From: Pseudovirgaria hyperparasitica
Taxonomy: Eukaryota
DNA length: 64,000 nucleotides
NCBI GenBank assembly: GCA_010093815.1
Contig: ML996567.1
Reading direction: 5' to 3' (one strand)
Each line of letters opens with the position of its first letter. Position 1 is the first letter of the stretch. This document shows, piece by piece, positions 5,841-53,606 of this stretch. The notes beneath the pieces are model-generated. The model ran no database searches, was not told the origin of the DNA, and worked only from the letters and a program-made list of their open reading frames with translations. The position numbers and the translations under genes are program-made.

Positions 5841-6072
5841 AGTGAATATCTGTGCGTGCGGGCATTAGCCCTAGATCCAAAGAGAAGTGAACATAGGATA
5901 TTTACTTCGACGATGGAGCTAAGAAATAGTGATGCGTATCAGGATGGAGATGCAATGTCACAGACTTCTATGTAATCAGGGTAGGGTTCTAGCACGCGGC
6001 GCAGTTACAGAATTGTGGGATTTCTATTAGGTCATCCTCATTACTTAGATCTTATTTAGTACTAGGTTAGTA

Positions 6073-9000
6073 TAATAATAATAATAATATTATATAACTA
6101 GGTAGAGTAGTACTCTATAGACCTATGCCTCCTCTAGTCTAAGCTACTATATAAGAAGAAACCCTATAGGGAAAAACTTCCTTATATCTATAACTATATC
6201 TCGTTAAACCTCTATTTCGTCTTAAGTATATAGCTATAGGGTACGCCTATTAGTCTATAGCCTATATTACTATTATTTTACCCTTAGGTAGTACGTGTAG
6301 GTACGGAGGTTATTAGTTAAGGGCTGCCCTTAACTAATAATCGGGGTTCTCCCGGGGTTCTTCCGGTATATATTAGGTTACTACCGGCGTATGCCGGGTC
6401 TCTTCCGGTATATATTTCTAGGTCCACTAGTACTAGAGGAGTAGTAGATATATAAGCATCTATTAGGAGACGTCCTTAGGGTACTTATTAAGCTATTATA
6501 TAATATCTAAAGTCTTCGTAACGTGGATAAGCTATTACCGTTATATATAGAGGTTAGGGTATATAGCTAGATAGTAGCGTATTATACCTCTCCGGCCGTA
6601 CGCCTTATACTATAGAGAGGTATTAGGAACGCCTCTCTTATAGATATAGTATAGGAGTCCCATGGCGCCTATTCGGGCTTAGATAAGTATAGATACTTAG
6701 GCTTTCGTTAGCCCTTTATATATCTATTTACTCGGTTCCTTCTATAGCCCTTAAATCTACTCTAGGTATCTATTCTACTAGGAGGTCTAGTAGGTATAGA
6801 GTGCCTCTTTCTACTTATCTTAAGTCTATAACTATATATTTTTTATAAGTTCTTAAAGGCTCTACTAGTCTAGGAGAGCGTCCGGGTTATCTCGGACTTC
6901 TTATACTACTTAGCTAGAGTCGGCTTCTATTAAGTACCTATACCGTATTCGATTCCGGCCTATATATAGGAGTGCGCGGTAATATATACTAATTTATACA
7001 CGTAGCGCGGCGAAAGTGTATTCTGCGTTTCCTATGCGTTTCTATACTTATTATTTAGTAAAGTATACCACCCTCTATATCTAGTAGAAGTTATATATAC
7101 TTATAATGTCTATCTCGTATCGTAGTAGTACCGTATTAGTAGCTTTATATACGTCTAATATAAGACGGAGTATACGGTTCTATATGGATTTAAGCTTTAT
7201 TCGCCTAGTCTATATAAGGGCTATATACTAGTACTTGTGTCCGTACGTAAAGGCGGGTCGTACTATAGATATATATAGCTAGCGTGCCTTATCCTAGGCG
7301 GTTCCCTACGTAGAGGCTATAATCCGTTATATAGCGGCTTCTATCTAGAGAGCCCTAGAGACGGCGTATACTACTTATAGTCCCTATTTAAGCTTACTAT
7401 CTAGTATGACTCCGAGCGTATATATGCTTTATACTAGTAGTTCGTTAAATACGTCGATTCGGGGGCGTTATTCGCCTTCCCTAGTTACCTATTTCCCTTA
7501 ACGATTAATAAAGTGTATAAGCTAGTATTTCTCTAGGGCGAACTTTGCTCTATAGCGTTTTACCTACTAGAGGCACCTCTTATAGTTCTATTCTAGTCGT
7601 CTATACGTTCGGTTGGTATTATTATTAATAGCTAGGAGGTATATATTATTAGCGTATCCGACTACCTCTATATACTTTATTCCTTAAAGAAGGTCTACTA
7701 TAAAGAAGAGAAATAGGATCGGAGAGATAGTGCTCCCTTATAGGATGCCGTATACTATCTCTTTATATTCGCTCTAGTACCTAGGAATATATATCTAAGT
7801 TATTCTTCTTATAAGGAATAACTATATAAAGCGTATAATCTATTCTAGTATTCGTCTTATCCGGAGGTTATAAATAAGTCTTATATAGTTTATCTTATTA
7901 AATGCTCCGGCTATATCAAGGGAGAGAAGCGATACTACCTGTCCCTATTTCTATGCGGCCTAGACGACTTTAATAATATATTAGATAGCTATTATTAGAG
8001 AGCTATCTACCTTTACCTTCTAGTTCGGAGAGAGGAGATTATATTTCTATACTATAGTACTTATCTTCTTCGCTATCATAGTCTCTAGTATCTTACCTAG
8101 ATAGAAGAGAAGGGCGATTAGTCTCTATCCCTTTAGGGAGTTAGAGCTCTTTTCTAGTTTCGGGAGTATAATAGTATAGGCGACTTAGAAGCTCTAGGGG
8201 TGGTACCCCTACGTGATATATACTTAGAATATACGAGTAATAAGCGGTAGGGTCGCTTTTATAGTACTTTTTAGGTATTAATTTAGAATTCCATCTAGTC
8301 CGGGTACTTTATCATTTAGAAGTATCTTAATAATATTAAGTATATCCTCCTCCGTAACTTCTTCGGGGATATCTACCGTGTATAGATATTTAGCGCCGTG
8401 AACGTCTAATAGATCTACTAGTTCCGGGAGAGGGAATATAGCCTCCTATAGAGCCTTAGTTTTCTTAAGGCCTATGGAGTATATTCTCCCCTAATATATT
8501 AGGGGAGGTATAAGTGGCGGGGGTATCGGAGTATCTACGCCCTTAGCCTATTTCGCCATGCGCTATAGCCCTATTACGTATTATATCTATTAACTAGTAA
8601 TTATACGCTACTATTTACGCCTTTTATTACGGAGAACTTTATCGCGTTATTATATCGCTTCCTTCTATTCTTCCTACGACTCGGGTGTTCTCGTATAGTA
8701 TACGCGTCTATATAGTCTTCGGGCGTCTTATCTACTTTCCCGTACTTAAGGAATCCCCTTTACTTTCGGGGGCTAGTATATTTAGTATAGTACGTGTTTA
8801 TTTCTCGCATTCTAGTATGTTTATAGGAGTGTCTATACGGCCTGGTCTATAGCTAGGTTATTAGATATATTAACTATAGAGGGATCTAGGATCGCCGATT
8901 CTAGGTCCTTTAGGTACTTTTCCTAGTCGGTATCCTTCTATATCTATCGTCCCCGTTGTTTATTCGGGGTATATATGTTTATTACGGTTTCCATGTATTC

Positions 9001-10982
9001 GTAGTCGGAATCCGTCTATACCTAGCCTAGGCGGTAGTATTAGATCCGGTAACTAATATGCTCCGTAGCGAAGGTAAGGTTAAGCGTAGACCCGTCTTCG
9101 TCCTATTTATATTTTTTCTATATAACTTATTCTATAGGTATAAGTAGGTATAGGAAGTCGTGGTAGTAGGTGCGTAGTTCCCTTACTCTAAGTTCTTCCC
9201 TAACTACGGCTAGGCCTCCCTACTATTAGTGGTAGAGGTTAAAGTCTCCTAGAAGGATATATTACCCTAGTTCCGTGGTACCCTTAAGTATCTCGTCTAG
9301 TATAAGTACACGTTATTAGTTATATATGTTATATATATATAGGGGGCCTATATCTATTTATAGATATAGTATTATTCTAAGGTTATCGCGCTTGGTATAC
9401 GACTATAATAAGAGTAGTATTAACCTATGAATGTGGAAGAGGACTCGTCTTTCTAGTCCTAGAGGGTATATAGTATAGTATCCGGGGTGTATGGTTGGTT
9501 TACTCGTCTAGTAGTATTTATAGAGTTCCTAGATAGCGAGTATTATAGCCCCGGTCTCTTCGAGGAGCGTCGCCTAGTTCTCTCTTTTATATTATATATT
9601 TACCTATATAATTCGGAGTATATTCTAGTCCCTTATTAGGTACTAGAGAGTATATATATCTATATACTTATTTCTTAGAGGCGCGACTATCCTCGCGCGG
9701 TAGCGGCTTTAACTATGCCTTTTAGTCATTCTATCGCCTTCGGAATAGTCTACTATCCCGTCTAACTACCTTCCGGAGGGGAGGTTAGGGGTGTTATAAA
9801 GGAAGGGCTCGTGGTAGGTATTATATTCTATAACTATCTCGTGCCTCTCGCTTTTATCATGCGAATATATTCTATAACCTATTTACGTTTTATGCACGTT
9901 AACGACCACGACGGGTGTTTCCCGTCGTAGTTTAAATACTATACTATATCCCTGTTTCTTGGTCCGTCTCCTCGCGGTTTATAAGGGCACTCCTAGGTAG
10001 TATAGTCCCTACGGTACTATCCGCACTTAGTCTTCTATAAGTACCTTTATATAGTATATCCATACCCTTAATAGTTAAAGCACTATATTATTACCTATGC
10101 TCTATCCTATAGCTCGGCCATAAGGAGCTCTCCTTCTATTAGGAATCCCTTCTATATAATACGTTATACGAGGGCGGGGTCTCGGAGCTCCATAATTATA
10201 GTAGAGTATTTTTTCGCCGTCGTCTTAATCGCCTATGGGTTCTTCTACCACGCTTTCACGATCTTAATCCCTAGGTATTTTCGCGTGTTGGATTATTCCA
10301 TGCGCGTAATATCCTCCGCTCCGATAGCCTATCCCTACACGGGTACTATATATACTATAATTAGATATATGGCTGCCCTAATAGACGCGCCGGGGAAGAT
10401 ACTACCTATCACGTTCGGATCTCGCGAGATGTTTTACTACGCGGTATTCGTTATAGTAGTAAGTACTACCCCACCTAGCGTAACTTTAGTAGCCACGACG
10501 CTTAACTATATTCCTTTCTATTTATTAATCTTATTTATAATTTCCTTTAGGGATACCTATTAGACCTACGCCAGCGTGTCCTTATTCTAGATTACGACAT
10601 GTATACTATATACTCTATCTATAGTTCTAGTAGTCCTTAGTACGGTAGCTCCGGGTGTTACTATAATCTAAGCCTACGTGTTAGGGCGCTTACCTTAGAA
10701 TAGCTCTTTCTAGATTCTCCGTAGGCTAGCTTCTATTTGGTCGAGTCTACTACTAGGTTCCTCTTATAGCGACTTCCTTTCTTTCTCTATAATTCCTCTT
10801 AGGTTCCGGATAAGGTCCCGGAATATATAAAGGAGGGTCTTCTTTCTCTTCTCGGCGTCCCTCTCTACACGTATTACCTAGTATTTAATTTTATCTAGGA
10901 GGGTCTCCCCTCTCGGGGTCCCCTCGGTCTAGGTTATCTATAGCGCTTCGTATCCTTAGTTAGTTCCTGTATTTTAGATAGG
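6073..10982 (-). mobile_element. Tad-like LINE copy 1, RIP-inactivated, 5'-truncated at an LTR insertion
   Basis: (TAA)n tail at 6073-6089. De-RIPped minus-strand motifs: ORF2 CCHC near 6560-6620, RT YA[D][D] near 7650, endonuclease GDFN near 9245 and IQEP near 9530, ORF1 zinc knuckles at 9880-10090. Collinear with 30476-35784. Confidence 0.9.
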
Positions 10983-11222
10983 TATAAGGATTGTAGACGT
11001 AGAATAGTAGTCTAACAGGTCATAGAAGGATTCGGGAATATATTTAAAAGGGTAGTCTACTCTTCTAACGAGGTTAATTTCTAAAGAGTAGGAATTAAGT
11101 ATATACGGCCTACTTATATAGTAGTCTCGCTTATTCTAGCTAACTTACCCTAGGTCCACCTATCATGGACCGTACTAGACCATAGTATTCTAGTTAAGTC
11201 CGTCCTAGTATCAGCCCTAATA
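10983..11222 (-). repeat. 240-bp LTR, type 1 (3' LTR of element 1)
   Basis: Reverse complement of the LTRs at 37270-37509 and 45041-45280; adjacent polypurine tract (atatccttcttctttt on + strand). Confidence 0.92.
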
Positions 11223-11709
11223 ATATCCTTCTTCTTTTTATACTTCGCCCCGAAGTACTTAGCTATATATAAATCCGTAATTCCATAAGCGTTATATTTA
11301 TACGCGCATCTAATTAAATCTATATAACGTTATTAATAGTCTTTATATTAGTAAACTTAAGCTCTAGTTCACTTTTATTTATATACGCGCTCATCCCTTA
11401 CTTTATAGCTACTGCCTTAGAGGTAGCTCCGCGGGTCATGTAACCGCTATATTAACTAAGCTTATATTTAGTTCTCTTATTCTAAATTTTCTTCTCTAGT
11501 ATATCTACCTTACTCTTAAGGTAAGTCGTTAATTCGTATACTATCTCCTTTAGTTTAGATCCGTTCGGGTCTAGAGTAGTCTATTTTCGTTAGAGCTAGT
11601 CCTATATAATCTATTCGCGTTATTATAGTTACTAATTTAGCTTCTTTAATCGCCTTTAAGGCTAAACGAGTATTCTACTCTTAGATCTCTAGCTAACGTA
11701 TGTATATAG

Positions 11710-13016
11710 ATATCTAATACTAGTTCTATTTCTAAGCCTACCTCCTCCTCTCGCAAGACTCGCTCTAAAGAGATTATCTCTACCCTAGCTATACCGGCTA
11801 AAAAATCCACTTATCGTAGTAGTATAAAGGCGCGCTCTAAGTTAGAGAAGAAGATAGCTAAGGCTACTACTACTATTACTACTAACGTAGCTACTAGTCG
11901 CTCTAATCTAGGTAATTCTAGTACTGGTGTTACGGAAGAGGTGGCTATAAAGCCTACCTTTACCTACTCGCGCCGCCTATTTACTCTACCTCCTTTAGAG
12001 GATAAAGAAGATCTCGTCATAGATAATAATCGAGAGTTTACGCCTTCGCCGCCTCGCTCTAAACGCCGTTCCTCTTTTCGGTCTAATATAGACCGACTTA
12101 GTTACTCTAGGTCCTTTTAGGACCTTAATATTCGCTCTAAACCTAGCCCTAGTAATAATAAGGCCTAGGTCACCGAAGATACTAAACGTAGTCGCGGTTT
12201 ACGCTATAGAAAAACGGCGAACTACGGTTTAATATACTTTAAGTATATTAAGGCTTACGCTACTAGCTCTAAATATCTCTTCTACTCTAACTCTAGTATT
12301 AGCTACTACTCTACTAACCGCGACGGGCCTATACGCCCTATCTTTACTCTACCTACCCGCTACTACCGCTATACCGTGACTAGTAAGACTTATCTATAGG
12401 TAAGTATAATAGGCTATCTTAATCTAGTATAATCTAAAGTGGTCCGCGCTAATACATTCTTAGGTTCCTATATATATATAAGATATATATAACGACCTTC
12501 CCGTCCGTAAGACCCTCGGGGGTCCTTATAGCCGCCTATCTACTATATAGAGGGAGTTTAGGGAGTACTATAAGCTCTTCCTAGAGGTTATTAAAGTATA
12601 AGTTACGAGCACGTTAATTATTTTTAATACCTATTGATTTTTCTAGCCGCCGCGAGATCTCTAGCGCCTAGACTACCTATTCTAGGGAGTCTATCCTAGC
12701 TATAGAGGCCGTAGAGAGGATTTACTCTATCCCTCTCTATCCGTCTCGCGCTACTAACGTATCTTATAAGAGGTCTACTATTTCTCCCTCTAAGTCGCCT
12801 CGTAAGAGGGTATATATTCCCTTCTAGATTATTCTAGATTATGTTAGCTAACTTTAGACCTAGTCGCTACGCTCCGGCGCTTAAGGCTCTTCCCTCTAGG
12901 CTCTAATAGATCGGGTTATTACTCTAGAGGCTAAGGTCGTCGTCCTCCGCCGCTATATCGTATAGTTAGAGAGAACTATACTAGAGATTAGGATAGATAA
13001 TAAGATAGAGGAGTAG
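11710..13016 (+). pseudogene. RIP-inactivated spliced gene antisense to gag-pol in element 1; predicted Cys6 (Zn2Cys6-like) and coiled-coil protein
   Basis: 230-codon exon at 11710-12399 whose only stops are RIP-type TAG. Introns 12400-12463 (gtaagt..gctaat..tag), 12598-12646 and 12810-12863 (gtatat..gctaac..tag) splice in frame. Confidence 0.7.
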
Positions 13017-13872
13017 CTCTATGGTTCTAGCTCTATGTATTAGCTCTGTGCCTAGCTCTATATATTCTAGATCTACTATAGGTAGTGCGCGCCGGCTCTA
13101 TTTACCTAGCTTTTATCCGTTTTAGTCCTTTTTAGACCGTTTAGATACCCGTTAGTATAAAGAGTAAAGACGTAGAATAGTAGTCTAATAGTTCATAGAG
13201 AGACACAGGAATATATTTGTAGAGTAATCTTACTCTTATACGAGGTTAATTCCTAACGAGTAGGAATCGGTTTATACGGTCTACTTATATAGTAATATCG
13301 CTTAACTTAGCTAACTTAACCTAGCTCTGGCCACTACGTGGCTACATGGATTAGAATAGTCTATATAGGTCCATTATGGTTCCCGTCCTAATAATATCCT
13401 TTTTCTTTTTATGCTTCGCCCCGAAGCACTTAAGTATATATAATCCTAAGTCTTTATAATCTATCGTGTACCTATACATCCGTGACTAAGTTCCTATGAC
13501 GTTATAACTATCCTTAATATAGGTAAACTCGAGATTCTAGTTCACTTTTACTAGTTTATACACGCGCTTATCTCTTGCTTCGTGGCTGCTACCTAGGACA
13601 CGTGATCGCTACTTTGGTCGAGTATATATTTAGCTTCGCTCGCCTTTGATTTTATTCTCTAGTATATCCACCTCGCTCTTAAGGTAAGTCGTTAATTCAT
13701 ATACTATCTTCCCTAGTTTAGGTTTAGAAGGGTCTATAGTGGTCCATTCTTATTAGAACCGGTCCTATATAATCTATTCGCGTTATTACGGTTACTAATT
13801 TAGCTTCGTTAATCGCCGTTAAGGGTGGACGAATATTCCTTCCTTAGATCTCTAGCTAACGTATATATATAG

Positions 13873-15185
13873 ATATCTAATACTAGTCCTATCTCTAAGC
13901 CTGCCTCCTCCTCTCGCAAGACTCGCTCTAAAGGCATCGCCTCCTCCCCGGCCACGCCGGCTAAGAAGCCTACCTATCGCGGTAGTACGAAGGCGCGCTC
14001 TAAGTTAGAGAAGAGAGTAGCTAGGGCTGCTACTATTACTACCTCTATTACTAATATAGCTACTAGTCGCTCTAATCTAGGTAATCCTAGTACTAAACTT
14101 ATAGATAAAGTGGTCATAGATTCTCCTCTCGCTCTAAAGCGTACGCTATCTACTCTACCTCCTCTAGAGAATAAAGAAGATCTTATTATAGACGATAATC
14201 GCAAGCCCTTGCGCTCATCTACGCCGCCGCCTCGCCGCTCTTCCTTCCGGTCTAACATAGACCGATTTAGTCGCTCTAGGTCCTTTTAGGACCTTAATAT
14301 TCGCTCTAAACCCTAGCCTACTAATAATAAGGCCTAGGTCACCGAGGATACTAAATATAGTTATAGTTTACGCTATAGGAAAACGGCGAACTACGGTTCG
14401 ATATACTATAAGTATATTAAGGGCCATATAGCCGGCTCTAAATATCTCTTTCGCTCTAACTCTAGTATTAGCTACTACTCTACTAACCGCGACGGGCCTA
14501 TATACCCTATCTTTACTCTACCTACCCGCTACCGCCGCTATACTATAACTAGTAAGACTTATCTATAGGTAAGTATAATAGGCTATCTTAATCTAGTATA
14601 ATCTAAAGTAGTCCGCGCTAATATATTCTTAGGTTCCTATATATATATAAGATATATATAACGACCTTCGCGTCCGTGAGACCCTCGGGGGTCCTTATAG
14701 CCGCCTACCTACTATATAGAGGGAGTTTAGGGAGCGCTATAAGCTCTTCCTAGAGGTTATTAAAGTATAAGTTATAAGTACGTTAATTATTTTTAATACC
14801 TATTAATTTTTCTAGCCGCCGCGAGATCCCTAGCGCCTAGGCTACCTATTCTAGGGAGTCTATCCTAGCTATAGAGGCCGTAGAGAGGATTCGCTCTATC
14901 CCCCCCTATCCGTCTTACGCTACTAATAGATCTCGTAAGAGGTCTACTATTTCTCCCTCTAAGTCGCCTCGTAAGAGGGTATATATTCCCTTCTAGATTA
15001 TTCTAGATCGTATTAGCTAACTTTAGACCTAGTTACTACGCTCTAGCGCTTAAGGCTCTTCCCTCTAGGCTCTAACGGATCGGGTTATTACTCTAGAGGC
15101 TAAGGTCGTCGTCCTCCGCTACTATATTATATAGTTAGAGAGGACTATACTAGAGGTTAGGACGGATAATAAGATAGAGGAGTAG
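13873..15185 (+). pseudogene. Copy 2 of the antisense spliced Cys6/coiled-coil gene (in element 2)
   Basis: Homologous to 11710-13016 with the same donor, branch and acceptor positions. Confidence 0.68.
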
Positions 15186-17768
15186 CTCTATGGTTCTAGC
15201 TCTATAGGTTTAGCTCTATGCCTAGCTCTATATATTCTAGATCTACTATAGATAGTACGCGCCGGCTCTGTTTACCTAGCTTTTATCCGTTTTAGTCCTT
15301 TTTAGACCATTTAGATACCCATCGGCTAGTTTCTAGTAATTTAATTCTTAACTTAACGATATTATGTGTGCGCTCGCTTAGCTTATAACTATTAGTTTCT
15401 ATATTCTAATTTTCCTTAAGTTACCTAAGTGTGGGCACCGCATATAAATTGGTTTATCTCTATGAATTCTATTAGAGCACCTAAACCAGTGGCCTAGTAG
15501 TTATCGGTTTAGGTACTCTAACTTTTTATGTTTCGTGTTAAGAGTTTAATTCTATGGTAGGGTACCTTTTTTTAGGTTCTTAGTCCCATGTTTTTCTCGT
15601 GTATAATGGTCTATATTAGTCTATTCTAGACTCTTCTATATTATTCTATTATGGTATATCGCGTCGCGTTCCTAAAATGGTTATTTACGCTTTCTTCGCG
15701 TCTAGTAACCGTATAATACTTAAATTATAGGGCTGCTATATAGAGTTTTCCTAGTGCGCGTCTAGATTTCCTAGTTTAGTACTTCGTTCTCTATAGTATC
15801 CTTCTTCTTTTTACGACGACCGCGACGTTACTATACTTATATTAATAATACGCTATTCTATATCTTTTACTTATACGTAGCCATTATAGAACTTAAGATA
15901 TATACTACTAGTTCCTAGGTATCCTCGTCCTTAGTATAGTTCTTCTAACGGATTCTATATTTCTAAATACCGTCTTTATCGATCCTATGTTTAATAATAT
16001 AGTCCACTTTAAACACGTCTAGTCTATCTTAGGGTATAATAGAGTGTAACTATACGTTCGTACGGCTATACATGTTAGGTCGAAATCTTTCGAGTAGTAA
16101 GACGTGGAACACGTTATAGATTCTTATATCGCTTCCTAAGTCGAGCTCATAGACTCTTATACTAATACGATGTTTGATTCGGAAGGGACCAGCCATTTTA
16201 TAATCGAGCTTCTTATTTACTCGCGATATTTATATATTATAGACGTTAAGAAGGACCTTATCGCCCTCCTCGTACGTCTAATCCTTAGCTAACCTATTAT
16301 AGTACTTCGTATACGAGTCGTTTACTTATTAGATTATAGCGTGATAGTTACGTACGGTTTCAAAGATTTTAATTACTAATTCCTAAGCGTGGACGTTCAC
16401 GTCTATTATTTAATTAAATTAGACCGTCTAAGGCTTAAAACCTATCCTTAGACTACGTCCGAGGTTCGCCTAGAAAGGTATAATACCTATCGTACTATAA
16501 CGACTATTATTATATATAAACTCTACTATGCTTAGTAGGGAGGCGTAGTTATCCTACTCGAAATTATAGAATACACGTAGGTAGGCCTCGAGCATCTAGT
16601 TCTATCGCTCTATCTAGCTATCCGTCTAAGGATAAAATACTATAGACATGTTTCTATTTATACTTACTATTTCGTAGAATAACGTCTAGAATTTAGATAT
16701 GAAGATACTTCCTCGGTCCGTAACGATCCTTTTTAGTATACTATGGACCTTAATAATCTTATTCTAGAATACCTACGCTAGTTCTTTAGATGTAATCGTC
16801 TTCTATACCGGGATGTACCTAGATATCTTTATAAGTCTATCCACGATAATAAGAATAGAATTATAACTTATTCTAAGTATCTCGCTTAGAGATAAGTTAA
16901 CTATAAAGTCTATAGTAACGTCTTCCTATATAAAGAGGGGGGCTAAAAGAGGCTATAAATTCCTATATAGCTTATGCCTAGGGGCCTTCGTTCTTTAATA
17001 AATTAGATAAGTAGCTATCTATTCTTTAACGTACTTAGGTATATCTTCCTAAAAATAGTACTAATAAATTAAGCTTAGGGTACGTATATATCTAAAGTAT
17101 TCTACTAGGTTAGTATTATAGTATCGGCTAACTATGTTAAATCGCGCGTTACCCGTTAGTATATAGTACTTTCTATTATAGTAAAGTAAGCCGTCCACGA
17201 AGGTCCACTTATAGTCTACTTTAGTCTATAATAACCTATCTTACTATATTTTACGTAACTTTAAAACTATCGGGTCTATCTTCTATAGATCCATGATTAA
17301 CTAGGCGAGGTTAATTAGATATTCACGCCGGGCATTATCGCCCTTCCCGATAGCGCTAATAAACGGCCTACTAGGGACTTCGGTACCGCGTCTTTAGTTA
17401 CCGGCTTCGGTCTTAGAGATTTAATTACTAGTATCGATGTTAGCATCTCGCTAATCGCCTAATAACTTAAAATCTAACCTCGTCCTTAAGAGTTAGGCCT
17501 ATAGCTACTCTAGGACCCTATGGCTACTATAATTCTAGACGCCTTCTTTATAGTTAGGTCTTCTTAATATTCTATTAGCTAGATTTATACTTCTAGATTA
17601 ATAGTAGATTATAAAGTGAAAGTTCGTAAGCTACTTAGCCTATTAGACCTATCGACGGTTTAAAACCGTCGTGCTTATAAACCCCTTTAAGTTATAGTAA
17701 TTAGTTAGTAACTCGACGTTATATATAGTACCTTTAAGATAATATCGCTACTATTTAAACGACTCTAC

Positions 17769-17878
17769 NNNNNNNNNNNNNNNNNNNNNNNNNNNNNNNN
17801 NNNNNNNNNNNNNNNNNNNNNNNNNNNNNNNNNNNNNNNNNNNNNNNNNNNNNNNNNNNNNNNNNNNNNNNNNNNNNN
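17769..17878. other. Assembly gap (N run) in RNase H of element 2
   Basis: Run of N. Confidence 0.99.
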
Positions 17879-20800
17879 TTTAACGTAGATAGGTTTAGTT
17901 AGGTCGAAGTACACTAGTAATAGGGTAGTTATAAATGCCTCTTTGATTTTCTCGAAGGAGGCCCTTTCGCCTTTTAATAATTCTATAGGCTATAATTTAA
18001 TATTACGCTATTTCTATCTACCGCGGACCGTAATAGATAAATCTATAGTAGTAGTACGCGCGTTAAGCGGTACTACTAGCTAGGAGAAATACTTAATAAA
18101 TTTTTAGTAGTAATTAGCGAATCCGATAAAGACACGTATGTCTTAAACCGATTTTAGTTTAGGCTAGTCCACGATAGTAGCGACCCTGTCCCTTTCTATG
18201 GTTATACCTTAATTAGTAATAACGAAGCTAAGGAAGTTAACATGGTCCTAGTGGAACTTATATTTAGATAGCTTAATATATAGCTTATATTTTTCTAGCC
18301 TATCTAGGACTGCGCGTACGTGCTAGATGTGTTCTTCTTTATTATTAGAGAAGATAAGGATGTTATTAAGGTATACGATGCACGTCGTGTTAAGTAGGCC
18401 TACTAGCGCGTTATTAATATACGCTTAGAAGGTTCCTAGCGCGTTAGTTAGTCTAAAAGGGACCACTATATACTCGAAGTATCTATAACGGGTCCTAAAC
18501 GCCGTTTTCCACTTATCGCCCTTCTTAATATATAGGCGGTAGTAGGCGTCGTATAGATTAAGCTTAGTAAAGATCTTCGCGCGCCCTAGTCTATTAATAG
18601 ACTCGGAGATAAGAGGTAGTAGATAACGATTCTTTCGCGTAATATTATTTAGGCTACGGTAGTCGATATATAGACGGAGACTTCTATCCTTCTTCTTTAT
18701 AAAGAGGATTAGAGCTCCGGCTAGGGATATACTAGACCTAATCTATCCTCGCGTAAGGTTCTTTTCGATATATTCTCGGAGGACCTATAGCTTAGGTTCT
18801 AATAGAGGGTAGATAGGTCCGTATAGGGGTTATTAACCGTCTTCGAGGTTAATAGTAAGGTCGTTAGGTTAGTATTAAGGTAATTTAGATAAGTCGATCG
18901 CTAACGTGATATATTAGTATATTTTATACTAATATAGTAGGTTTTCGTCTACTTTAATACTAAGCTCTCTATTTTAAGTAAGTAAGAGGACGTAGATAGC
19001 GGAGATTACCTTTTCGTAGTCCTTCTAGAATTATTCATCATCAACTAGCTATACTAGATTCTATTATAGTAGGTACATGCGCCAGCCAGCTGTTTTCTAG
19101 ATAAAGTCTAGTTTCGGGTTATATTTTTCGAGCCACGGTATACTAAGGATTATATTAAAGGGACTATCTACCACGATAAAGGTTAAGTAGCAGGGTTTCC
19201 ACTTCCCCCCGCTATCCTAGATACTATATTTAATAGTATAGGTACCCTACGATTTAATAGGACCATCGATACCATGGAAGGTAGCACCTATTAGTACTTA
19301 AATATCGACGTTAAGTTCTTATACTCGTTAAGTTAATATAACGTTAGTAGCTAAACCGCTATTAAATATTATAGTCTAATATTATCCACGAGGGACCTCG
19401 ATAGGCCTAGCCTATAGTTCGATATACTAGTTGGCTAGTTATCTCTCTATTTTAGTTACGCCTATAAGTCGCGAGGGTTCCTTATAGATAGTTAGTTTTT
19501 TATATCGTATACCGGGTAGTTAGGCGCGATGTGTCCTAGCTATTAGTACTTATAGTATATAACTAACTTAGTATCTATATTAGTATTCGGTAGTTTCTCT
19601 AAGCGGCACTCGGGTGCTATATAGCCTATCCTACTATAGGTATAGTAGGTAACTTTAGGTTATTTATACGAGTCGTTTCTCGCGTCTCGATATATCGACT
19701 AGTAGAAAGATCCGTAGTACGGGCCTTGTCTTCTCGAGTTCGTAGAGTAGTAGCGCCCATAAGGTATTCCGCGCGATCTATTACTAAACCGGTCCTCTTT
19801 AGACGATTTTGTATTAGATTAGATTAATAGAGATAGTCGTGCGCCTATACGATGTTAGTTATTTATTATACGCTAATATCGTTCTACGAGATTCGTAAGT
19901 ATCTAAAGGTTAGTAGGGATAGACGTTATAAGGTCGATGCGTTCCTTTACGCTCGGGTTAAGGGACCTTTTAAAGTCGTCGCATTATTAAACCATACGAT
20001 CTTCCTTAGCTTCTCTCTAAAGAGGTTAGAGGTATTTAAGGAGTTATAATAGGGATTATCTCTCTCGCTATTAAGTCTTAAAGATATGGCTCTAAGCCTA
20101 TTCGCGTCGCTCGGCTCTATCACCGAAGTATTAAAGAAGGAATTTAGTGAACGTGTCCTAGTTATACATATCCTTAGGGTGTTTAATTCGATATACCATC
20201 TAACATTTAGATGGCGTTAGGTCTAGGTAGTTCTATACGAACCTAATCTTATTACTATCGTTTATAAATAGGTGGAAGAATCGGCTATACTAGTAAGCCT
20301 ATTTATAAAAGCTCCTTCTAGTTTTACCGTCGAAGTAAGATAGTTTCTTAGGCTAAGGTAACTAGGATAGTAATAGACTTAGTTAGACTATTTCGGCTTA
20401 AGTTAGTCTATATTAGTATAGGTTAGTTACTACTAGCACTAAAGCGCGTAGTATGGCTTTAAGTCTAGTGGTTCGTCCTTACGCTTTATTAAGTTTACGA
20501 AGTTATTACTTAAGCTAAGCCTAATACTACCTCTCCGTATATAGCTTAGTATATATATTATTATAAGGCGTGGTTAACGTTAGTCGGTTCTAATGAATTA
20601 ATTCGTTAACGTTAATAGGGTCTAGTCTTATAGTAAGGATGGGTCTAGTATAGTATAAACTAGACCGCGATAGAGTATAATGGACTCCTTTCTTATTATC
20701 TAGGTAATCTTCCACGGTTATATAGAATACTATACTAGTTATTAGTACGATAGTCTATAGGGTATACTTATTAGTAGAGGTGGTTATAGGGAGACTATTC

Positions 20801-23601
20801 TCTTCGTTTAGATTTAGAGAGAGTCTCTCGTGTAAGGTAGTACCACGGGTATTATAGCGCGTAGTAGAAGCTATCTCTATAAGCTACCGTCGTACTATAT
20901 AGAGAGGAATTAAAATATAAAGAGTGAAGACGTGGGATAGTAGTCTAATAGTTCATAGAGAGACATAGGAATGTATTTATAGAGTAATCTTACTCTTATA
21001 TAAGGTTAATTCCTAACGAGTAGAAATCGGTTTATACGGTCCACTTATATAGTAACATCGCTTAACTTAGCTAACTTAACCCAGCTCTGGCCACTACGTG
21101 GCTGCATGGATTAGAATGGTCTATATAGGTTCATTGTGGTTCCCGTCCTAACAGTCGGCTAGTTTCTAGTAATTTAATTCTTAACTTAACGATATTATGT
21201 ATACGCTCGCTTAGCTTATAACTATTAGTTTCTACATTCTAATTTTCCTTAAGTCACCTAAGTATAGGCACCGTATATAAATTAGTTTATCTCTATAAAT
21301 TCTATTAGAGTACCCGAACTAGTAGTCTAGTAGTTATTAGTTTAGATACTCTAACCTTTTATATTTCGTGTTAAGAGTTTAATTCTATAGTAGGGTACCT
21401 TTTTTTAGGTTCTTAGTCCTATGTTTTTCTCATGTGTAATAGTCTATATTAGTCTATTCTAGACTCTTCTATGTTATTCTATTATGGTATATCGCGTCGC
21501 GTTCTTAAAATGGTTATTTACGCTTTCTTCGTGTCTAGTAACTATATAACGCTTAAATTATAGGGCTACTATATAGAGTTTTCCTAGTACGCGTCTGGAT
21601 TTCCTGGTTTAGCACTTCGTTCTCTACGGTATTCTTCTTCTTTTTATAACGACCGCGACGTCGCTATACTTATATTAATAATATGCTATTCTATATCTTT
21701 TACTTATATATAGCCATTATAGAACTTAAGATATATACCGCTAGTTCCTAGGTGTCCTCGTCCTTAGTGTAGTCCTTCTAACGGATTCTATATTTCTAAA
21801 CACCGTCTTTATTAATCCTATATTCGATAATATAGTCCACTTCGAACACGTCTAGTCTATCTTAGGGTATAATAGAGTATAACTACACGTTCATGCGGCT
21901 ATATACGTTAGGTCGAAATCTTTTAAGTAGTAAGACGTGGAACACGTTATAGATTCTTATATTACTTCCTAAGTCGAGCTCGTAGGCTCTTATACCGATA
22001 TAACGTTTGATTCGGAAGGGACCAGCCATTTTATAATCGAGCTTCTTATTTACTTATAACGTTCGTATATTACGGACGTTAAGAAGGACCTTATCGCCCT
22101 CCTTATACGTCTAATCCTTAGCTAACCTATTATAGTACTTCATATATAAGTCGTTTACTTATTAGATTATAGTACGATAGTTACGTACGGTTTCGAAGAT
22201 TTTAATTGCTAATTCCTAAGCGTGGACGTTCACGTCTATTATTCGATTAAATTAGACCGTCTAAGGCTTAAAACCTATCCTTAGACTACGTCCAAGGTTC
22301 GCCTAGAAAGGTATAATACCTATCATACTATAACGACTATTATTATATACGAACTCTACTATACTTAGTAGAGAGGCCTAGTCGTCCTACTCAAAATTAT
22401 AGAATACACGTAGGTAGGCCTCGAGCGTCTAGTTCTATCGCTCTATCTAGCTATCCGTCTAAGGATAAAATACTATAGACATATTTCTATTTATACTTAC
22501 TATTTCGTAGAATAACGTCTAGAATTTAGACGTGAAGATACTCCCTCGGTCCGTAACGATCCTTTTTAGTATACTATAGACCTTAATAATCTCGTTCTAG
22601 AACACCTACGCTAGTTCTTTAGATATAATCGTCTTCTACACCGGGATATACCTAGATATCTTTATAAGTCTATCCACGATAATAAGAATAGAATTATAAC
22701 TTATTCTAAGCATCTCGCTTAGAGGTAAGTTAACTATAAAATCTATAGTAACGTCTTCCTATATAAAGAGAGGGACTAAAAGAGGCTATAAATTCCTATA
22801 TAGCTTATGCCTAGGGGCCTTCGTTCTTTAATAAATCGGATAAGTAGCTATCTATTCTTTAACGTACTTAGGTATATCTTCCTAAAAATAGTACTAACGA
22901 ATTAAGCTTAGGGTACGTATATACCTAAAGTATCCTACTAGATTAGCGTTATAGTATTAGCTAACTACATTAAATCGCGCGTTACCCATTAGTATATAGT
23001 ACTTTCTATCGTAGTAAAGTAAGCCGTCCACGAAGGTCTACTTATAGTCTACTTTAGTCTATAATAACCTATCTTACTATATTTTATATAACTTTAAAAC
23101 TATCGGGTCTATCTTCTATAGATCTATAATTAACTAGGTAAGGTTAATTAGACATTCACGCTAGGCATTATCGCCCTTCCCGATAGCGCTAATAAACGGC
23201 CTACTAGAGACTTTAGTACCGCGTCTTTAGTTACCGGCTTCGGTCTTAGAGATTCGATTACTAGTATTAATATTAGCATCTCGCTAATCGCCTAATAACT
23301 TAAAATCTAACCTCATCCTCGAGAGTTAGGTCTATAGCTACTCTAGGACCCTATAGCTACTATAATCCTAGGCGCCTTCTTTATAGTTAGGTCTTCTTAA
23401 TATTCTATTAGCTAGGTTTATACTTCTAGGTCGATAGTAGATTATAAAGTGAAAGTTTATAAGCTACTTAGCCTATTAAACCTATTAATAGTTTAAAACC
23501 GTTATACTTATAAACCCCTTTAAGTTATAGTAATTAGTTAGTAACTCGACGTTATATATAGTACCTTTAAGATAATATCGCTACTATTTAAACGACTCTA
23601 C

Positions 23602-23776
23602 NNNNNNNNNNNNNNNNNNNNNNNNNNNNNNNNNNNNNNNNNNNNNNNNNNNNNNNNNNNNNNNNNNNNNNNNNNNNNNNNNNNNNNNNNNNNNNNNNNN
23701 NNNNNNNNNNNNNNNNNNNNNNNNNNNNNNNNNNNNNNNNNNNNNNNNNNNNNNNNNNNNNNNNNNNNNNNNNNNN
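23602..23776. other. Assembly gap (N run) in RNase H of element 1
   Basis: Run of N with the same flanks as the first gap. Confidence 0.99.
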
Positions 23777-26700
23777 TTTAACGTAGATAGGTTTAGTTAG
23801 GTCGAAGTACACTAGTAATAGGGTAGTTATAAATGCCTCTTTGATTTTCTCGAAGGAGGCCCTTTCGCCTTCTAATAATTCTATAGGCTACGATTTAATA
23901 TTACGCTATTTCTATCCACCGCGGACCGTAATAGATAAATCTATAGTAGTAGTACGCGCGTTAAGCGGTACTACTAGCTAGGAGAAGTACTTAACGAATT
24001 TTTAGTAGTAATTAGTAAATCTAATAAAGACACGTATATCTCGAACTAATTTTAGTTTAGGCTAGTCCACGATAGTAGTAACTCTATCCCTTTCTATGGT
24101 TATACCTTAATTAGTAATGACGAAGCTAAGGAAGTTAACGTGGTCCTAGTAGAACTTATATTTAGATAGCTTAATATATAGCTTATGTTTTTCTAGCCTA
24201 TCTAGGACTACGCGTACGTACTAGATGTGTTCTTCTTCGTTATTAGAGAAGATAAGGATGTCGTTAAGGTATACGATGTACATCGTATTAAGTAGGCCTA
24301 CTAGCGCGTTATTAATGTACGCTTAGAAGGTCCCTAGCGCGTTAGTTAGTCTAAAAGGGACTACTATATACTTAAAGTATCTATAACGGGTCCTAAACGC
24401 CGTTTTCTACTTATCGCCCTTCTTAATATATAGGCGGTAGTAGGCGTCGCGTAGATCGAGCTTAGTAAAGATCTTTACGCGCCCTAGTCTATTAATAGAC
24501 TCGGAGATAAGAGGTAGTAGGTAATAATTCTTTCGCGTGATATTATTCAGGCTATAGTAGTCGATATATAGATGGAGACTCCTATCCTTCTTCTTTATAA
24601 AGAGAATTAGGGCTCCGGCTAGGGATATACTAGGCCTAATCTATCCTTATATAAGGTTCTTTTCGATGTATTCTCGGAGGACCTATAGCTTAGATTCTAA
24701 TAGAGGGTAGATGGGTCCGTATAGGGGTTATTAACCGTCCTTAAGGTTAATAGTAAGATTAGTAGGTTAGTATTAAGGTAATTCGGACGAGTCGATCGCT
24801 AACGCGATATATTAGTATATTTTATACTAATATAGTAGGTTTTCGTCTACTTTAATGCTAAGCTCTCTATTTTAAGTAAGTAAGAGAATATAAATAGTAG
24901 AGATTACCTTTTCGTAGTCCTTCTAGAATTATTCGTCGTCGACTAGCTATACTAGGTTCTATTATAGTAGGTACATACGCTAGCTAGCTATTTTCTAGAT
25001 AAAGTCTAGTTTCGGGTTATATTTTTCGAGCTACGGTATACCGAGGATCATATTAAAGGGGCTATCTACTACGATAAAGGTTAAGTAGTAGGGTTTCCAC
25101 TTCCCCCCGCTATCCTAGATGCTATATTTAATAGTATAGGTACCCTACGATTTAATAGGACCATCGATACTATAGAAGGTAGCACCTATTAGTACTTAAA
25201 TATTAATATTAAGTTCTCGTGCTCGTTAAGTCAATATAACGTTAGTGGCTAAACCGCTATCGAGTATTATAGTCTAATATTATCCACGGGGGACCTTAAT
25301 AGGCCTAGCCTATAGTTCGATATACTAGTTAGCTAGTTATCTCTCTATTTTAGTTACGCCTATAAGTCACGAGAGTTTCTTATAGGTAGTTAGTTTTTAA
25401 TATTATATACCGGGTAGTTAGGCGTGATATATCCTAGCTACTAGTACTTATAGTATATAACTAACTTAGTATCTATATTAGTATTCGGTGGTTTCCCTAA
25501 GCGGTACTTAGGTACTATATAGCCTATCCTACTATAGGTGTAGTAGGTAACTTTAGGTTATTTATATAAGTCGTTTCTCGCGTCTCGATATATCGACTAG
25601 TAGAAAGATCCGCGGTACGGGCCTCGTCTTCTTAAGTTCATAGAGTGGTAGCGCCTATAAGGTGTTCCGCGTAATCTATTACTAAACCGGTCCTCTTTAG
25701 ACGATTTTATATCGGATTAGATTAATAGGGATAGTTATACGCCTATACGACGTTGGTTATTTATTATATACTAATGTTATTCTACGAGATTCGCGAGTAC
25801 CTAAAGGTTAGTAGAGATAGACGTTATAAGGTCGATACGTTTCTTTACGCTCGGGTTAAGGGACCTTTTAAAGTCGTCGTATTATTAAACTATACGATCT
25901 TCCTTAGCTTCTCTCTAAAGAGGTCGGAGGTATTTTAGGAGTTATAATGGGGATTGTCTCTCTCGCTATTAAGTCTTAAAGATATAGCTCTAAGTCTATT
26001 CGCGTCGCTCGGCTCTATCGCCAAAGTATTAAAGAAGGAATTTAGTAAACGTGTCCTAGTTATACGCATCCTTAGGGTATTTAATTCGATATACTATCTA
26101 ACGTTTAGATAGCGTTAGGTCTAGATAGTTCTATGCGAACCTAATCTTATTACTATCGTTCGTGAATAGGTAGAAGAATCGGCTATACTAGTAAGTCTAT
26201 TTATAAAAGCTTCTCCTAGTTTTACCGTCGAAGTAAGGTAGTTTCTTAGACTAAGGTAACTAGAATAGTAATAGACTTAGTTAGACTATTTCGGCTTAAG
26301 TTAGTCTATATTAGTATAGATTAGTTACTACTAGTACTAAAGCGCGTAGTGCGGCTTCGAGTCTAGCGGTTCGTCCTCGCGCTTTATTAAGTTCACGAAG
26401 TTACTACTTAAGCTAAGCCTAACGCTACCTCTCCGCGTATAGCTTAGTATATACGTTATTATAAGGCGTGGTTAACGTTAGTTAGTTCTAACGAATTAAT
26501 TCATTAACGTTAATAGGGTCTAGTCTTATAGTAAGGATAGGTCTAGTATAGTATAAACTAGACCGCGATAGAATATAATAGACTCCTTCCTTATTATCTA
26601 GGTAATCTTCTATAGTTATACGGAATACCGTACTAGTTATTAGTGCGATAGCCTATAGAGTATACTTATTAGTAGAGATGGTCGTAGGGAGACTATTCTC

Positions 26701-26813
26701 TTTATTTAGATTTAGAGAGAGTCTCTCGTGTAAGGTAGTGCCACGGGTATTATAGCGCGTAGTAGGAGCTATCTCTATAAGCTACCGTCGTACTATATAG
26801 AGAGGAATTAAAA

Positions 26814-27051
26814 TATAAAGAGTAAAGACGTGGGATAGTAGTCTAATAGTTTATAGAGAGATATAGGAATGTATTTATAGAGTAGTCTTACTCTTATACT
26901 AGGTTAATTCCTAACGAGTAGGAATTAGTTTATGCGGTCTACTTATATAGTAACCTCGCTTAACCTAGCTAACTCATCCTAGCTCTAGCCGCTACGTGGC
27001 TACATGGATTAGAATGGTCCATACAGGTCCGTTAGGGTTCCCGTCCTAACA
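26814..27051 (-). repeat. 238-bp LTR, type 2 (5' LTR of element 1)
   Basis: Near-identical to 13156-13393 and 20916-21153; ends ...cctaaca; preceded by the PBS region agaggaattaaaa. Confidence 0.92.
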
Positions 27052-30000: not shown

Positions 30001-30475
30001 GAATTTTCGGTCTCTATTATAAATAATTACGGCTAGAACTCTCTATTCTAGTAGTATACTCCTTCTAAACGTAGTTACCTATTACGCGGTAGTCTAGTTA
30101 TTCCGGCCTAGGATAAGGTAGATTCACTTAGTAAACTTATCCGTTATAGTAAGTAGCGCGTTAAGTCTATTCTATCTTGGTAGTCCGATAATAAAGTCTA
30201 TTATAACCGTATAAAATAGTATTAGCGGTAACTAGACTAGCTTTAATTCACTATACGGCGTATATCTTTATATCTAGTAAGTTTTATAGGTGGGATAGTA
30301 CTAAATATAGTACTTTAGGCGCTTTGTAAGCCGATAAATAAAGTAGCCCGCGCAAATTCAATCGTATACTTAGAAAAATCCTATATAAGTACTTTTATTA
30401 TAGAATTAAGTAAAGATATCTCTATCGAGTAATTTTAGTACGTAGATCTAATATCGTCTATTAAGCTAATTAATA

Positions 30476-33400
30476 ATAATAATAATAATATTAGTAAACT
30501 AGGTAGAGTACCACTCTATAGGCGTATGCCTCCTCTAGTCTAAGCTACTATATAAGAAGAAACCTATAAATAGGAAAAACTCCCTTATATCTATAACTAC
30601 GCTCTATCTATCCTCTTATTCTTTATATATATATAGCCCTAGGGGCTACCCATAGGCCTATAGCCTATATTATAATAGTTTACCCTTAGGTAGCACGTGT
30701 AGATGCGGAGATTATTAGTTAAGGGCTACCCTTAACTAATAATCGCGGTTCTCCCGGGGTTCTTCCAACGTATACCGGGGTTCTTCCGGTATATATCGGG
30801 CTTCTTCTAGTATATATACGCGGGTCTACTAGAACTAGGGGAGAGGAAGGTGTACGAGTATCTATCGGGCGACGTCCTTAGGGTACTTATTAAGCTATCG
30901 CGTGATATCGGAGGTCCTTATTATATAGATAAGGGCTTATCTTAGGGTATAGAGGCTAGAGCACGTCGCGAGGTAGTAGCGTATTATACCTCTCCGGCCG
31001 TAGTCCTCGCACTAGAGAGATATATCTAGAATACCTCTCTAGTAGAGGTAATATAGGAGACCTATAGCGCCTATTCGGGCTTAGAGGAGTATGGATGCTT
31101 AGGCCTTCGTTAGCCCTTTATATATCTATTTACTTAGTTCCTTCTAAGGCCCTTAGATCTATTCTAGATACCTATCCTATTAGGAGGCCCACTAGGCTTT
31201 AAGTATCTCCCTCTATTTATTCTAGATCTACGACCGTATAACGCGGCTAAGCTCCTTAGGGCTCTATTAGCTTAGGACGGTATCCGGGTTATTTCGAACC
31301 TTCTACGCGGTCTAGCTCGAGTCCGCCTCTATATAGTATTTATATTATACTTAAGTTTATCCTATAGTAGGGAGGGCCTAGTAATACACGCGGATACATA
31401 TACGTAGTACAGCGAAGGTATATACCCTATCTCCTCCACATTCTTATACTTATTATTTAGTAAAGTATATAAGTCTCTATATCTAGTAGAAGTCCTATAT
31501 ACTCATTACATTTATCTCACGTCAGAGAAGCGTCGTGTTAGTAGCTTTATATACGCCGGAGATAAGGCGGAGTATATGGTTTTATATAGACTTAAGCTTT
31601 ACCCGCCGAGCTTATATAAGAGCCGTATACTAGTACTTGTATCCGTATATAAAGGCTAGGCGTACTAGGGAGACGTATAGCTGTCTCGCCTTATCCTAGG
31701 CTATTCTCTACGTAGATGCCGTAATCTAGCGTATAGCGGTTTCTATCTAGAGGGCTCTAGAGACGGCGTGTGCCACCTATAGTCCCTATTTTAGCTTATT
31801 ATTAATTATGACGCTAAGTGCTCGTATACTCTATACTAGTAGTTCTATAAAGGCGTCGATTTAGGGGCGACGTGCCCCCTCCCTAGTAGCCCATCCTCTA
31901 TAGTAGTTAATAAAGTATATAAGCTAGTATTTTTTAGGTGTGAATTTTACTCCGTGGCGCTTTATCTACTAGACGCATTTCTTATGGTCTTATTCGAGTC
32001 GTGTATATATTCTACTAGTACTACTATCGACCGCGAGGAGGTATATATTATCCGCGTATCCGACTACCTCTATATATTCTATTCCCTAAAGGAGATCTAC
32101 TATAAAGAAGAGGAAGAGAATCACGGAGATAGTACTCCCTTACGGGATACCGTATACCGTCTCCTTATATTCGCTTCGGTATCCGGGGATATATATTTAA
32201 GTAGTCCTTTATACGAGGAAGGACTATATAAATCATATAATCTACTTAGGTATTCGCCTTATCCGGAGGTTATGGATAAGTCTTATATAGTTTACCTTAT
32301 TAAACGCCCCTACTATATCTAGGGAGAGTAGCGTAATAACTTATCCTTATTTCTATATAGTCTAGATAACCTCGAGGATATATTAAATGGCTATAATTAG
32401 GGAGCTTCCTACCTTCGCCTTCTGGTTTACTAGGAGAAGGCCGTGTACCTATACTACTATACTTATCTTCTTAGTAATCGTGGCTTCTAGTACCTTACTA
32501 AGGTAGGAGAGGAGGGCGATTAGCCTCTATCCCTTCGGCGTGTTTAGGCTCTTCCCTAGTTTTAGAAGTATAACTATATATACGGTTTAGAAGCTCTATA
32601 GGTAGTATCCTATACGGGCGCACGCTCGGAATATATAGCCTATAATTAGTAAGGTCGCCTATATAGTCCTCTTAAGGCATTGATTCGGAATTCTATCTAG
32701 CCCGGGCGCTTTATCGTTCGGGAGTATCTTAATAGCGCCGAGTATATTATTGTCCGTGATTTCCCTAGGGATACTTACGGCTTCTAGGTATTCCGTGCCG
32801 TTAATATCTAATAGGTCTACGGGTTCTAGGAGAGGGAATATAACCTCTTATAGGATCTCTATTTTCTCGAGGCTTATAGAGTATATCTTTTCTTAATATA
32901 TAAGGGGGGGTATAAGTGGTATAGGTGTCGGGGAGGCGGTACTTTTAGTCTATTTTACTATATACTATAGTCTAGTAGTATTACGTGTGTATCTGTCCGT
33001 GACTATACGCTACTATTTACGTCGCTTATTACGGAGGACCTTATCTTATTATCTTCTCGCCTCTCTCTATTTATTCTATACTTTAGATATATAGTTATAG
33101 TATACGCGTGTATATAATCTCCGGACTTCTTATCTATGCTCTTATACTTAAGGTATGCTTTTTAGGTCTAGGGGTCTATATATTCGGTACGGCACGTGTT
33201 TATCTCTTACTCCCTAGTACGCCTATAGGAGTATATTCACGGCCTGGTTAATAGCCGGGCCATTAGATACGTCGACTATAGACGGGTCTAGGATCGTCGA
33301 TTCTAGGTCCTTTAGGTACTTTTCCTAGTTAGTATTCTTCTATAGCTATCGCCCTCGTTAGTCTTAAGGGGTAGATACGTCTATTACGGTCTCTATATAT

Positions 33401-53222: not shown

Positions 53223-53606
53223 TGTTGTGTTGTCGCCCGTGACAACGACAGGTGTTGGATGAAGGAGTAGTCGCAATTGACCCAGGCAGAAAGCTTAGAT
53301 GGATCAATGTTAATGGTCATAGTCTTTGGGGACGAGTATTCAGCTGATCGATGAAAATGAGGGGTAGTCATGCAACGAAGCGGCGCAGTGTCATGGATCC
53401 ATGCCTGGCACTCAACCACTTAGATACGACCACGTCTGTTCATACAACAATAGATGCCTGGAAAGACGCCTGCATTACATGCAGTTCGATCGTCGAGCAC
53501 AACAGACGAGCTTCGAGCAACTACAAAACACAATCGACCCCTTTATACTGGCAATAATGATAATCAGATATTACAAAGCTTGAGATGGGATCACAGCCTC
53601 GTTCGT

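Follow-up and report, generated by a model that had tools for sequence, protein, structure and literature searches.

The stretch of DNA analyzed in this study, hereafter the window, comprises 64,000 nt of Pseudovirgaria hyperparasitica (GCA_010093815.1, contig ML996567.1). Self-BLAST, repeat families and the reading of junctions revealed three repeated units in it: a long terminal repeat (LTR, unit L), a body (unit B), and a stretch, X, that adjoins the LTR. They form retrotransposons that we assign to the Ty3/gypsy chromoviruses of ascomycetes. Each of the three copies of X (c1, c2, and c3) carries a long reading frame that runs antisense to gag-pol and appears to be interrupted by introns. 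This frame is the subject of the present work. An earlier note on the same DNA had interpreted it as a spliced gene for a zinc-cluster and coiled-coil protein. The coordinates of all features are summarized in Table 1.

The elements lie in an AT-rich block (~6000-50000) with a GC content of 30-40%, compared to 46-51% in the flanks. The observed-to-expected ratios of CpA and TpG are 0.17 and 0.20 within the block versus 1.14 and 1.15 in the flank, and TpA reaches 1.76 of its expectation. Similarly, the TA/AT index of the X stretch is 2.0, compared to 0.72 in the flank. The block carries the marks of saturating repeat-induced point mutation (RIP). Sites polymorphic between the three X copies are mostly CpG (153), followed by CpT (96), CpC (74), and CpA (43). 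Many of these differences are adjacent TA/CG pairs, and the same pairs are found among the many genomic copies of the family.

The assignment of the host element is based on its pol region. On the minus strand of 15322-20915, Pfam detected RVT_1 (E 3.2e-21), SH3_Tf2-1 of the integrase (E 1.8e-12), and Chromo (E 0.0063; 16.8 bits, under the cut-off of 25.1), in this order, in agreement with the earlier note, which had placed gag-pol opposite to the frame. The relatives of the reverse transcriptase, at 46-58% identity, are chromodomain-bearing polyproteins, most of them with PF00385. The few named ones belong to Aspergillus, Parastagonospora, Curvularia, Salinomyces, and Fusarium, none to Botrytis. 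Because of these pol domains and relatives, the elements are classified as ascomycete Ty3/gypsy chromoviruses.

A complete element of this type, which contains c3, is bounded by a 5-bp target-site duplication. Its LTR ends read TATTAGG...CCTTATA, i.e., TA..TA, which we read as RIP-altered TG..CA. The polypurine tract AAAAAGAAGAAGGATAT immediately precedes its 3' LTR, and X fills the ~1.9 kb between this tract and the end of pol. No tRNA-type (TGG-type) primer binding site was recognized after the 5' LTR at 37510-37540 (TTTTAATTCCTC...) or from 20915 downwards. Since the complete, duplication-flanked copy contains X, the stretch is internal to the element. A single LTR of 2.17 kb made up of L and X was also considered and rejected: the boundary of the LTR falls on the same base next to X, next to flanking DNA, and next to B, and the short LTR is present at both ends of the complete element.

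The forward cluster at 10983-27051 is less regular, with the order L-X-L-X-B-L-B-L. Here c1 is flanked by two LTRs and has no gag-pol, so that only c2 and c3 are joined to pol. The N runs at 17769-17878 and 23602-23776 occupy the same relative place in both forward B copies, and part of the arrangement may therefore be a matter of assembly. The cluster is either a product of recombination or an assembly artefact. The earlier note had described three elements with a spacer of ~2.3 kb between pol and the 3' LTR; such a spacer exists for c2 and c3, at ~1.9 kb, but not for c1, which lacks pol.

The antisense gene is predicted to consist of four exons separated by three short introns of fungal type. 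A collinear frame at 11710-13016, 13873-15185, and, on the minus strand, 44553-43249 was found exactly where the earlier note had placed it, and the four-exon frame is present in all three copies. The spliced lengths of 1140, 1146, and 1137 nt are all multiples of three. Intron lengths are equal across the copies, except for intron 2 of c3 (50 instead of 49 nt). The hexamer GTAAGT occurs twice on the gene strand of X in c1, twice in c2, and once in c3, each time at a proposed intron start, and was never found on the other strand of X. The claimed intron coordinates and in-frame splicing were reproduced, as was the upstream GTAAGT..GCTAAC..TAG motif in all three copies. Exon 1 begins in all copies with ATA, directly after the TAG at 11707-11709. 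This ATA is plausibly a former ATG altered by RIP, and with this reading the upstream intron would lie in the 5' untranslated region (UTR).

Table 1. Position of the repeated units, the host element, and the predicted antisense gene in the window.
Feature	Position	Strand	Remarks
L, LTR, 240 bp	10983-11222, 13156-13393, 20916-21151, 26814-27049, 37270-37509, 45041-45280		From self-comparison and junctions
X, 1.93 kb	11223-13155 (c1), 13394-15321 (c2), 45040-43140 reversed (c3)		From self-comparison and junctions
B, body, 5.6 kb	15322-20915, 21155-26813, 37510-43139 reversed		From self-comparison and junctions
LTR left of c1, 240 bp	10983-11222	-	TA..TA ends, read as RIP-altered TG..CA
LTR serving as 3' LTR of the element of c2	13156-13393	-	From self-BLAST and junctions
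Polypurine tract, c1	11223-11241	-	Abuts LTR; minus strand purine-rich; plus strand reads ATATCCTTCTTCTTTTTAT
Polypurine tract, c2	13394-13412	-	Minus strand purine-rich
Polypurine tract, complete element	45015-45040	+	
gag-pol body	15322-20915	-	RVT_1 ~18700-18221; SH3_Tf2-1 ~16265-16083; chromodomain ~16013-15912; N run 17769-17878
Complete element, 8011 bp	37270-45280	+	LTRs 37270-37509 and 45041-45280; target-site duplication CTTTA at 37265-37269 and 45281-45285
Upstream region, taken as promoter and 5' UTR	11242-11709	+	Composition scored as non-coding in each phase (-23 to -49 bits)
Candidate 5' UTR intron, 189 nt	11521-11709	+	GTAAGT..GCTAAC..TAG, kept in all three copies
Exon 1 (c1)	11710-12399	+	230 codons, 3 stops, first codon ATA
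Intron 1, 64 nt	12400-12463	+	GTAAGT..CTAAT..TAG
Exon 2, 134 nt	12464-12597	+	Length sets the phase of exon 3; own compositional support weak
Intron 2, 49 nt (50 in c3)	12598-12646	+	ATAAGT..TAG in all three copies; presumed GT donor
Exon 3, 163 nt	12647-12809	+	Predicted phase favored in all three copies
Intron 3, 54 nt	12810-12863	+	GTATAT..GCTAAC..TAG
Exon 4, 153 nt	12864-13016	+	Least supported; TAG end in all copies
Antisense gene, c2	13873-15185	+	Exons 13873-14568, 14633-14766, 14816-14978, 15033-15185
Antisense gene, c3, within the complete element	44553-43249	-	Exons 44553-43864, 43799-43666, 43615-43453, 43398-43249

The openness of the frame was assessed in 1389 sliding segments of 690 nt over 6001-50000, with six frames each. 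The 12 segments with at most four stops all correspond to exon 1 of c1, c2, and c3 on the proposed strand. Over its 230-232 codons, exon 1 has three stops in c1 and four each in c2 and c3. None of 2000 sequences simulated with a first-order Markov model had three stops or fewer (mean 15.8, minimum 6). For the whole spliced frame, 10, 11, and 9 stops were counted in c1, c2, and c3, whereas the two alternative frames contain 21-23 and 56-66. The stops are TAG or TAA (8+2, 9+2, and 7+2 in the three copies) and never TGA, as the earlier note had stated. The frame lies far beyond chance. Furthermore, exon 1 shows the strongest 3-base periodicity anywhere in the element, with a -log10 p of 8.3 in c1 and 6.8 in c2, compared to 3.3 at most for pol. 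A tandem repeat as its source was rejected, as a 21-nt CTA run is the only one inside exon 1.

The proposed splicing was explored with a position-specific composition model trained on exon 1. For exon 3 of all three copies, the predicted phase scored +12.5 to +17.0 bits and the other phases -19 to -28 bits, a margin of more than 30 bits. The predicted phase is not the one that exon 1 has in the genome, and it is reached only when the 134 nt of exon 2 are spliced in; it therefore agrees with the splice model. The same composition model rated the 480 nt upstream and the introns as non-coding. The distribution of indels points in the same direction. The exons account for 59% of the length but contain only two of the 11 internal indels among the three copies (binomial P = 0.007); the length of each of the two is divisible by three (one of 6 nt, and a 3-nt deletion in exon 4 of c3). 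Outside the exons this applies to one indel out of nine; four of the five in the upstream region are not multiples of three, and intron 2 of c3 has an indel of 1 nt. The scarce, in-frame indels of the exons suggest selection during the divergence of the subfamilies. As judged from the sequence, exons 1-3 of the gene are well supported and exon 4 is weak. The claim of a multi-exon gene antisense to gag-pol, in the interval between pol and the 3' LTR, is supported by stop counts, periodicity, the phase of exon 3, indels, and the complete element.

The encoded protein has been strongly altered. Cys, Trp, Gln, and Met are absent from all three translations, and His occurs 0, 1, and 3 times in them. 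RIP converts TGY and CAY to TAY (Tyr), CAR and TGG to stop codons, and ATG to ATA. The absence of Cys, Trp, Gln, and Met and the scarcity of His result from the loss of every CpA and TpG. Additionally, another copy has CGN (Arg) in place of at least two stops that look shared and of several Tyr codons. None of the three copies is still functional, with 9-11 in-frame stops and the start codon removed by RIP.

The earlier note proposed an expanded-loop Zn2Cys6 (Gal4-type) regulator with a coiled coil in the last exon, while conceding that no TGY codon was retained, which is indeed the case in all three copies. In favor of the proposal, six Tyr codons (12235, 12244, 12304, 12361, 12370, and 12391 in c1) are TAY in every copy, as RIP would leave them from TGY, and the last three are spaced x2 and x6, as in C-x2-C-x6-C. 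This spacing, if the residues once were Cys, is the only likeness to PF00172. TAY can equally derive from CAY, and with TAY in all three copies neither Cys nor Tyr is readable at these positions. The full spacing is x2, x19, x18, x2, x6. The first triad would thus be C-x2-C-x19-C instead of C-x2-C-x6-C, and the gap to the second is 18 instead of 5-12; no other choice among the invariant Tyr yields C-x2-C-x6-C-x5-12-C-x2-C-x6-8-C. Moreover, the six were picked from ~15 Tyr positions in 70 codons, and at four of the remaining positions a less mutated copy encodes Arg or His (12256, CAT in c2; 12283, CGC in c2; 12334, CGC in c1; 12364, CGC in c2 and c3). Neither PF00172 nor PF00098 matched any of ten exon translations at E up to 10, although Cys codons, if there were any, have been destroyed by RIP. 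The only Pfam matches of these translations at that threshold were Lzipper-MIP1 (E 0.023) and DUF4988 (E 0.17), both sub-threshold. The former, which would be the trace of a leucine zipper-like coiled coil, reaches 15.5 bits against a cut-off of 32.2 and lies in exon 4, the weakest exon. The Zn2Cys6 identity is not supported, the coiled coil is a weak candidate, and we regard a Gal4-type regulator as very improbable. The gag-type CCHC knuckle (PF00098; C-x2-C-x4-H-x4-C) does not fit either, as the Tyr and His residues give x2, x3-H, and x5, with the His in c2 only. Reading them as C-x2-C-x3-H-x5-C followed by C-x2-C-x6-C is possible, yet it fits no family tested. A Cys/His-rich zinc-binding segment is a reasonable guess.

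Several observations weigh against a gene in X, and they need to be considered together with the explanations that do without one. The frame and the splice motifs might arise from the biased, RIP-altered composition of a non-coding spacer or a long 3' UTR. CTAAC (89+112 on the two strands) and CTAAT (140+161) are indeed common in the 44-kb block, and roughly one intron-like pattern per 15 kb is expected by chance. At its donor site, intron 2 has ATAAGT in all three copies; no ATG is left, and the searches described below gave no homologue of the protein. Exon 4, with four stops in 51 codons, is no more open than other frames, and its predicted phase is the best in two of the three copies only, with little support of its own; exon 2 prefers the predicted phase weakly and likewise has little support of its own. 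At ~0.07 transversions per site, compared to 0.06 upstream, the exons are no better conserved than their flanks. Transversions by codon position (20, 22, and 35; P = 0.075) and all changes (P = 0.04) show a weak third-position excess, which adds no support and whose weakness is expected if most divergence between the copies is neutral decay after insertion. Transcription and splicing of the gene are predictions from the sequence. There are also fairly open frames on the opposite strand. However, composition alone does not account for exon 1, which is the extreme of all segments scanned and lies beyond all simulations, whose periodicity exceeds that of pol, and whose composition predicts the phase of exon 3; the indel pattern also fits coding. 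The absence of any gene is accordingly quite unlikely. Coding on the sense strand, as a third, env-like open reading frame downstream of pol, is the least probable of the explanations considered. A partial de-RIP reading gave one minus-strand frame of ~165 codons with a single stop. Over exon 1 of c1, however, the three frames contain 3, 12, and 41 stops on the gene strand and 10, 15, and 55 on the other, and the sense frame switches within exon 1 without splice signals, on a strand devoid of GTAAGT.

The frame could also be real and still be a passenger. In this case, the founder of the family would have acquired it a single time, either by transduction of a host gene or from some other mobile element, and it would be of no service to the element that carries it. 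No protein relative linked to any other chromovirus appeared in the searches. A word-index protein search with exon 1 gave 387 candidates, none at E up to 0.01; a profile of the three exon-1 translations had no match at E up to 0.001 among 1.84 billion representatives; and no Pfam family matched the exon translations above cut-off. In a metagenome scan, none of 188 matches to exon-1 patterns was confirmed. The integrase-chromodomain part retrieved nine chromovirus loci at 28-35% identity, for which tblastn of the three spliced translations reached a best E of 0.61 and maps of open reading frames showed no clear antisense gene past pol. In an intact distant relative (L001), the ~1 kb after pol holds no antisense frame of at least 120 aa. 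These negatives carry little weight because of the RIP damage and the low-complexity N-terminal half of the query, and they count on both sides, as no homologous host gene or transposon was found either. In the window, X is absent from one of three pol ends: the pol copy at 21155-26813 meets the LTR without X, with 2-3 bases of filler (21152-21154). The polypurine tract is missing there as well, so that this junction looks like a rearrangement. The loose resemblance of the C-x2-C-x3-H-x5-C reading to a gag knuckle would suit a captured fragment. On the other hand, the indel pattern of the exons, with few indels and all of them in frame, suggests selection. We consider the passenger explanation unlikely, though less so than the absence of a gene.

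The X stretch is therefore best explained as the remains of a protein-coding accessory gene, antisense to gag-pol and killed by RIP, in an abundant family of ascomycete chromoviruses, and we hold this to be probable. The gene would have been divided into four coding exons by three short introns of fungal type, with perhaps a further intron in the 5' UTR. Its product of once ~380 residues would have started with a basic half rich in Ser, Thr, Lys, Arg, and Pro, followed by a Tyr-rich segment that may once have been rich in Cys and His, and a short C-terminal part. Transcription would have started from its own promoter in the ~480 bp beside the 3' LTR and proceeded towards pol. The introns would have outlasted retrotransposition because the genomic RNA carries them in antisense orientation, in which splicing is unable to remove them. 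The same principle is used in antisense-intron retrotransposition reporters, in which the antisense intron is kept in the genomic RNA and hence copied; these are engineered markers without homology to the gene described here. Antisense accessory genes of other LTR elements suggest, by analogy, a nuclear protein that probably bound nucleic acids and helped or regulated the element.

Such genes have precedents. The earlier note mentioned antisense open reading frames in some plant gypsy elements but named no spliced zinc-cluster version in fungal chromoviruses. However, Boty-like chromoviruses of Botrytis cinerea and Sclerotinia sclerotiorum have an antisense extra gene, brtn, between pol and the 3' LTR, which is described in several papers (PMC7264820, PMC8365987, PMC4227169, PMC5987419, citing Zhao et al., 2011, Virology 417:248). 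The antisense architecture between pol and the 3' LTR is thus already published for fungal elements, and the novelty of the present finding is modest. Judged by description only, brtn resembles our gene in its host, an ascomycete Ty3/gypsy element with a chromodomain, in its position and orientation, and in having no known function. It differs in that the pol relatives named here are not from Botrytis, while brtn resides in Botrytis and Sclerotinia. The review PMC7264820 groups brtn with the aORF-3R of plants, i.e., maize Grande gene23, rice RIRE2, Silene Retand, and Phaseolus PvRetro13. According to the same review, an aORF-3R is present in most copies of a family and its protein lacks relatives in databases; the gene of Grande is reported to have its own promoter upstream of the reading frame and a nuclear product. 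The gene in X shares with them the position between pol and the 3' LTR, the antisense orientation, and the lack of database relatives, and its coding capacity is present in degenerate form. The plant genes belong to another kingdom and other element lineages and show no sequence link, and the gene described here is interrupted by multiple short introns of fungal type and has lost all activity through RIP. Retroviruses, too, have genes that run antisense to the genome close to the 3' LTR, as mentioned in that source (PMC7264820); those are animal viruses, and their genes have no homology to the one described here. The accessible text of a survey of fungal LTR elements (PMC3248453) makes no mention of an antisense gene of this kind. 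A bolder interpretation is that X represents a second family of accessory genes in ascomycete chromoviruses, unrelated to brtn, in which an intron-bearing antisense gene encoded a nuclear Cys/His zinc-binding protein, was under selection, and spread to hundreds of copies before RIP. We put this forward tentatively and consider it rather doubtful.

The element family is very abundant in DNA contigs. From two runs of one sample, 6369 and 2226 short contig pieces map on the X stretch, while runs X3 and X4 contain next to none of it. The 40 variants listed across these pieces are all transitions, except for 12821 C>A and 11960 T>A; many are adjacent TA/CG pairs, and there is no indel at the listing threshold. 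One contig of run X2 joins 11220 to 12198 and so links the end of the LTR with the 3' part of exon 1, with 977 bases skipped and two other letters in between. It represents a deleted family member.

The AT-rich block also contains other repeats. Two copies of a non-LTR element resembling a long interspersed nuclear element (LINE) are located at 6042-10924 and 30439-35338 and are 73% identical over 4.9 kb. Reverse transcriptase motifs were seen on their minus strand, and the family name is a reading of the translation, not a tool result. The first copy ends ~60 bp from a chromovirus LTR. After exon 1, the next most open 690-nt frames of the block, with 5-6 stops, are found on the plus strand at 9781-10800 and ~34500-35200, opposite to the strand of the LINE-like reverse transcriptase. 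Short direct repeats of 75-79% identity lie near both edges of the block (3240-3425/49397-49580 and 49026-49189/49228-49390). Directly next to the block, the minus strand of 49957-53276 has a pair of long open frames, of 827 and 276 aa, and more long frames are found up to 61662. Rfam gave no match in the whole window, and a bacterial promoter and terminator scan, a type of scan not applicable to a fungus, stayed at the level of shuffled sequence.

Since the copies in the window are dead, the finding has no direct bearing on the biology of the host. Its significance lies with the elements: little is understood about the accessory genes that LTR retrotransposons carry, and brtn is the single fungal case in print. 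A second fungal case, if true, would mean that antisense accessory genes are not an oddity of Botrytis, and that the statistics of frame, periodicity, and indels suffice to recover such genes from DNA ruined by RIP. If the gene in X should represent an independent family, antisense accessory genes would be recurrent in fungal LTR elements and overlooked because RIP hides them. The introns would record the antisense orientation through retrotransposition, and with an intact relative in hand the function of genes of this class would become testable.

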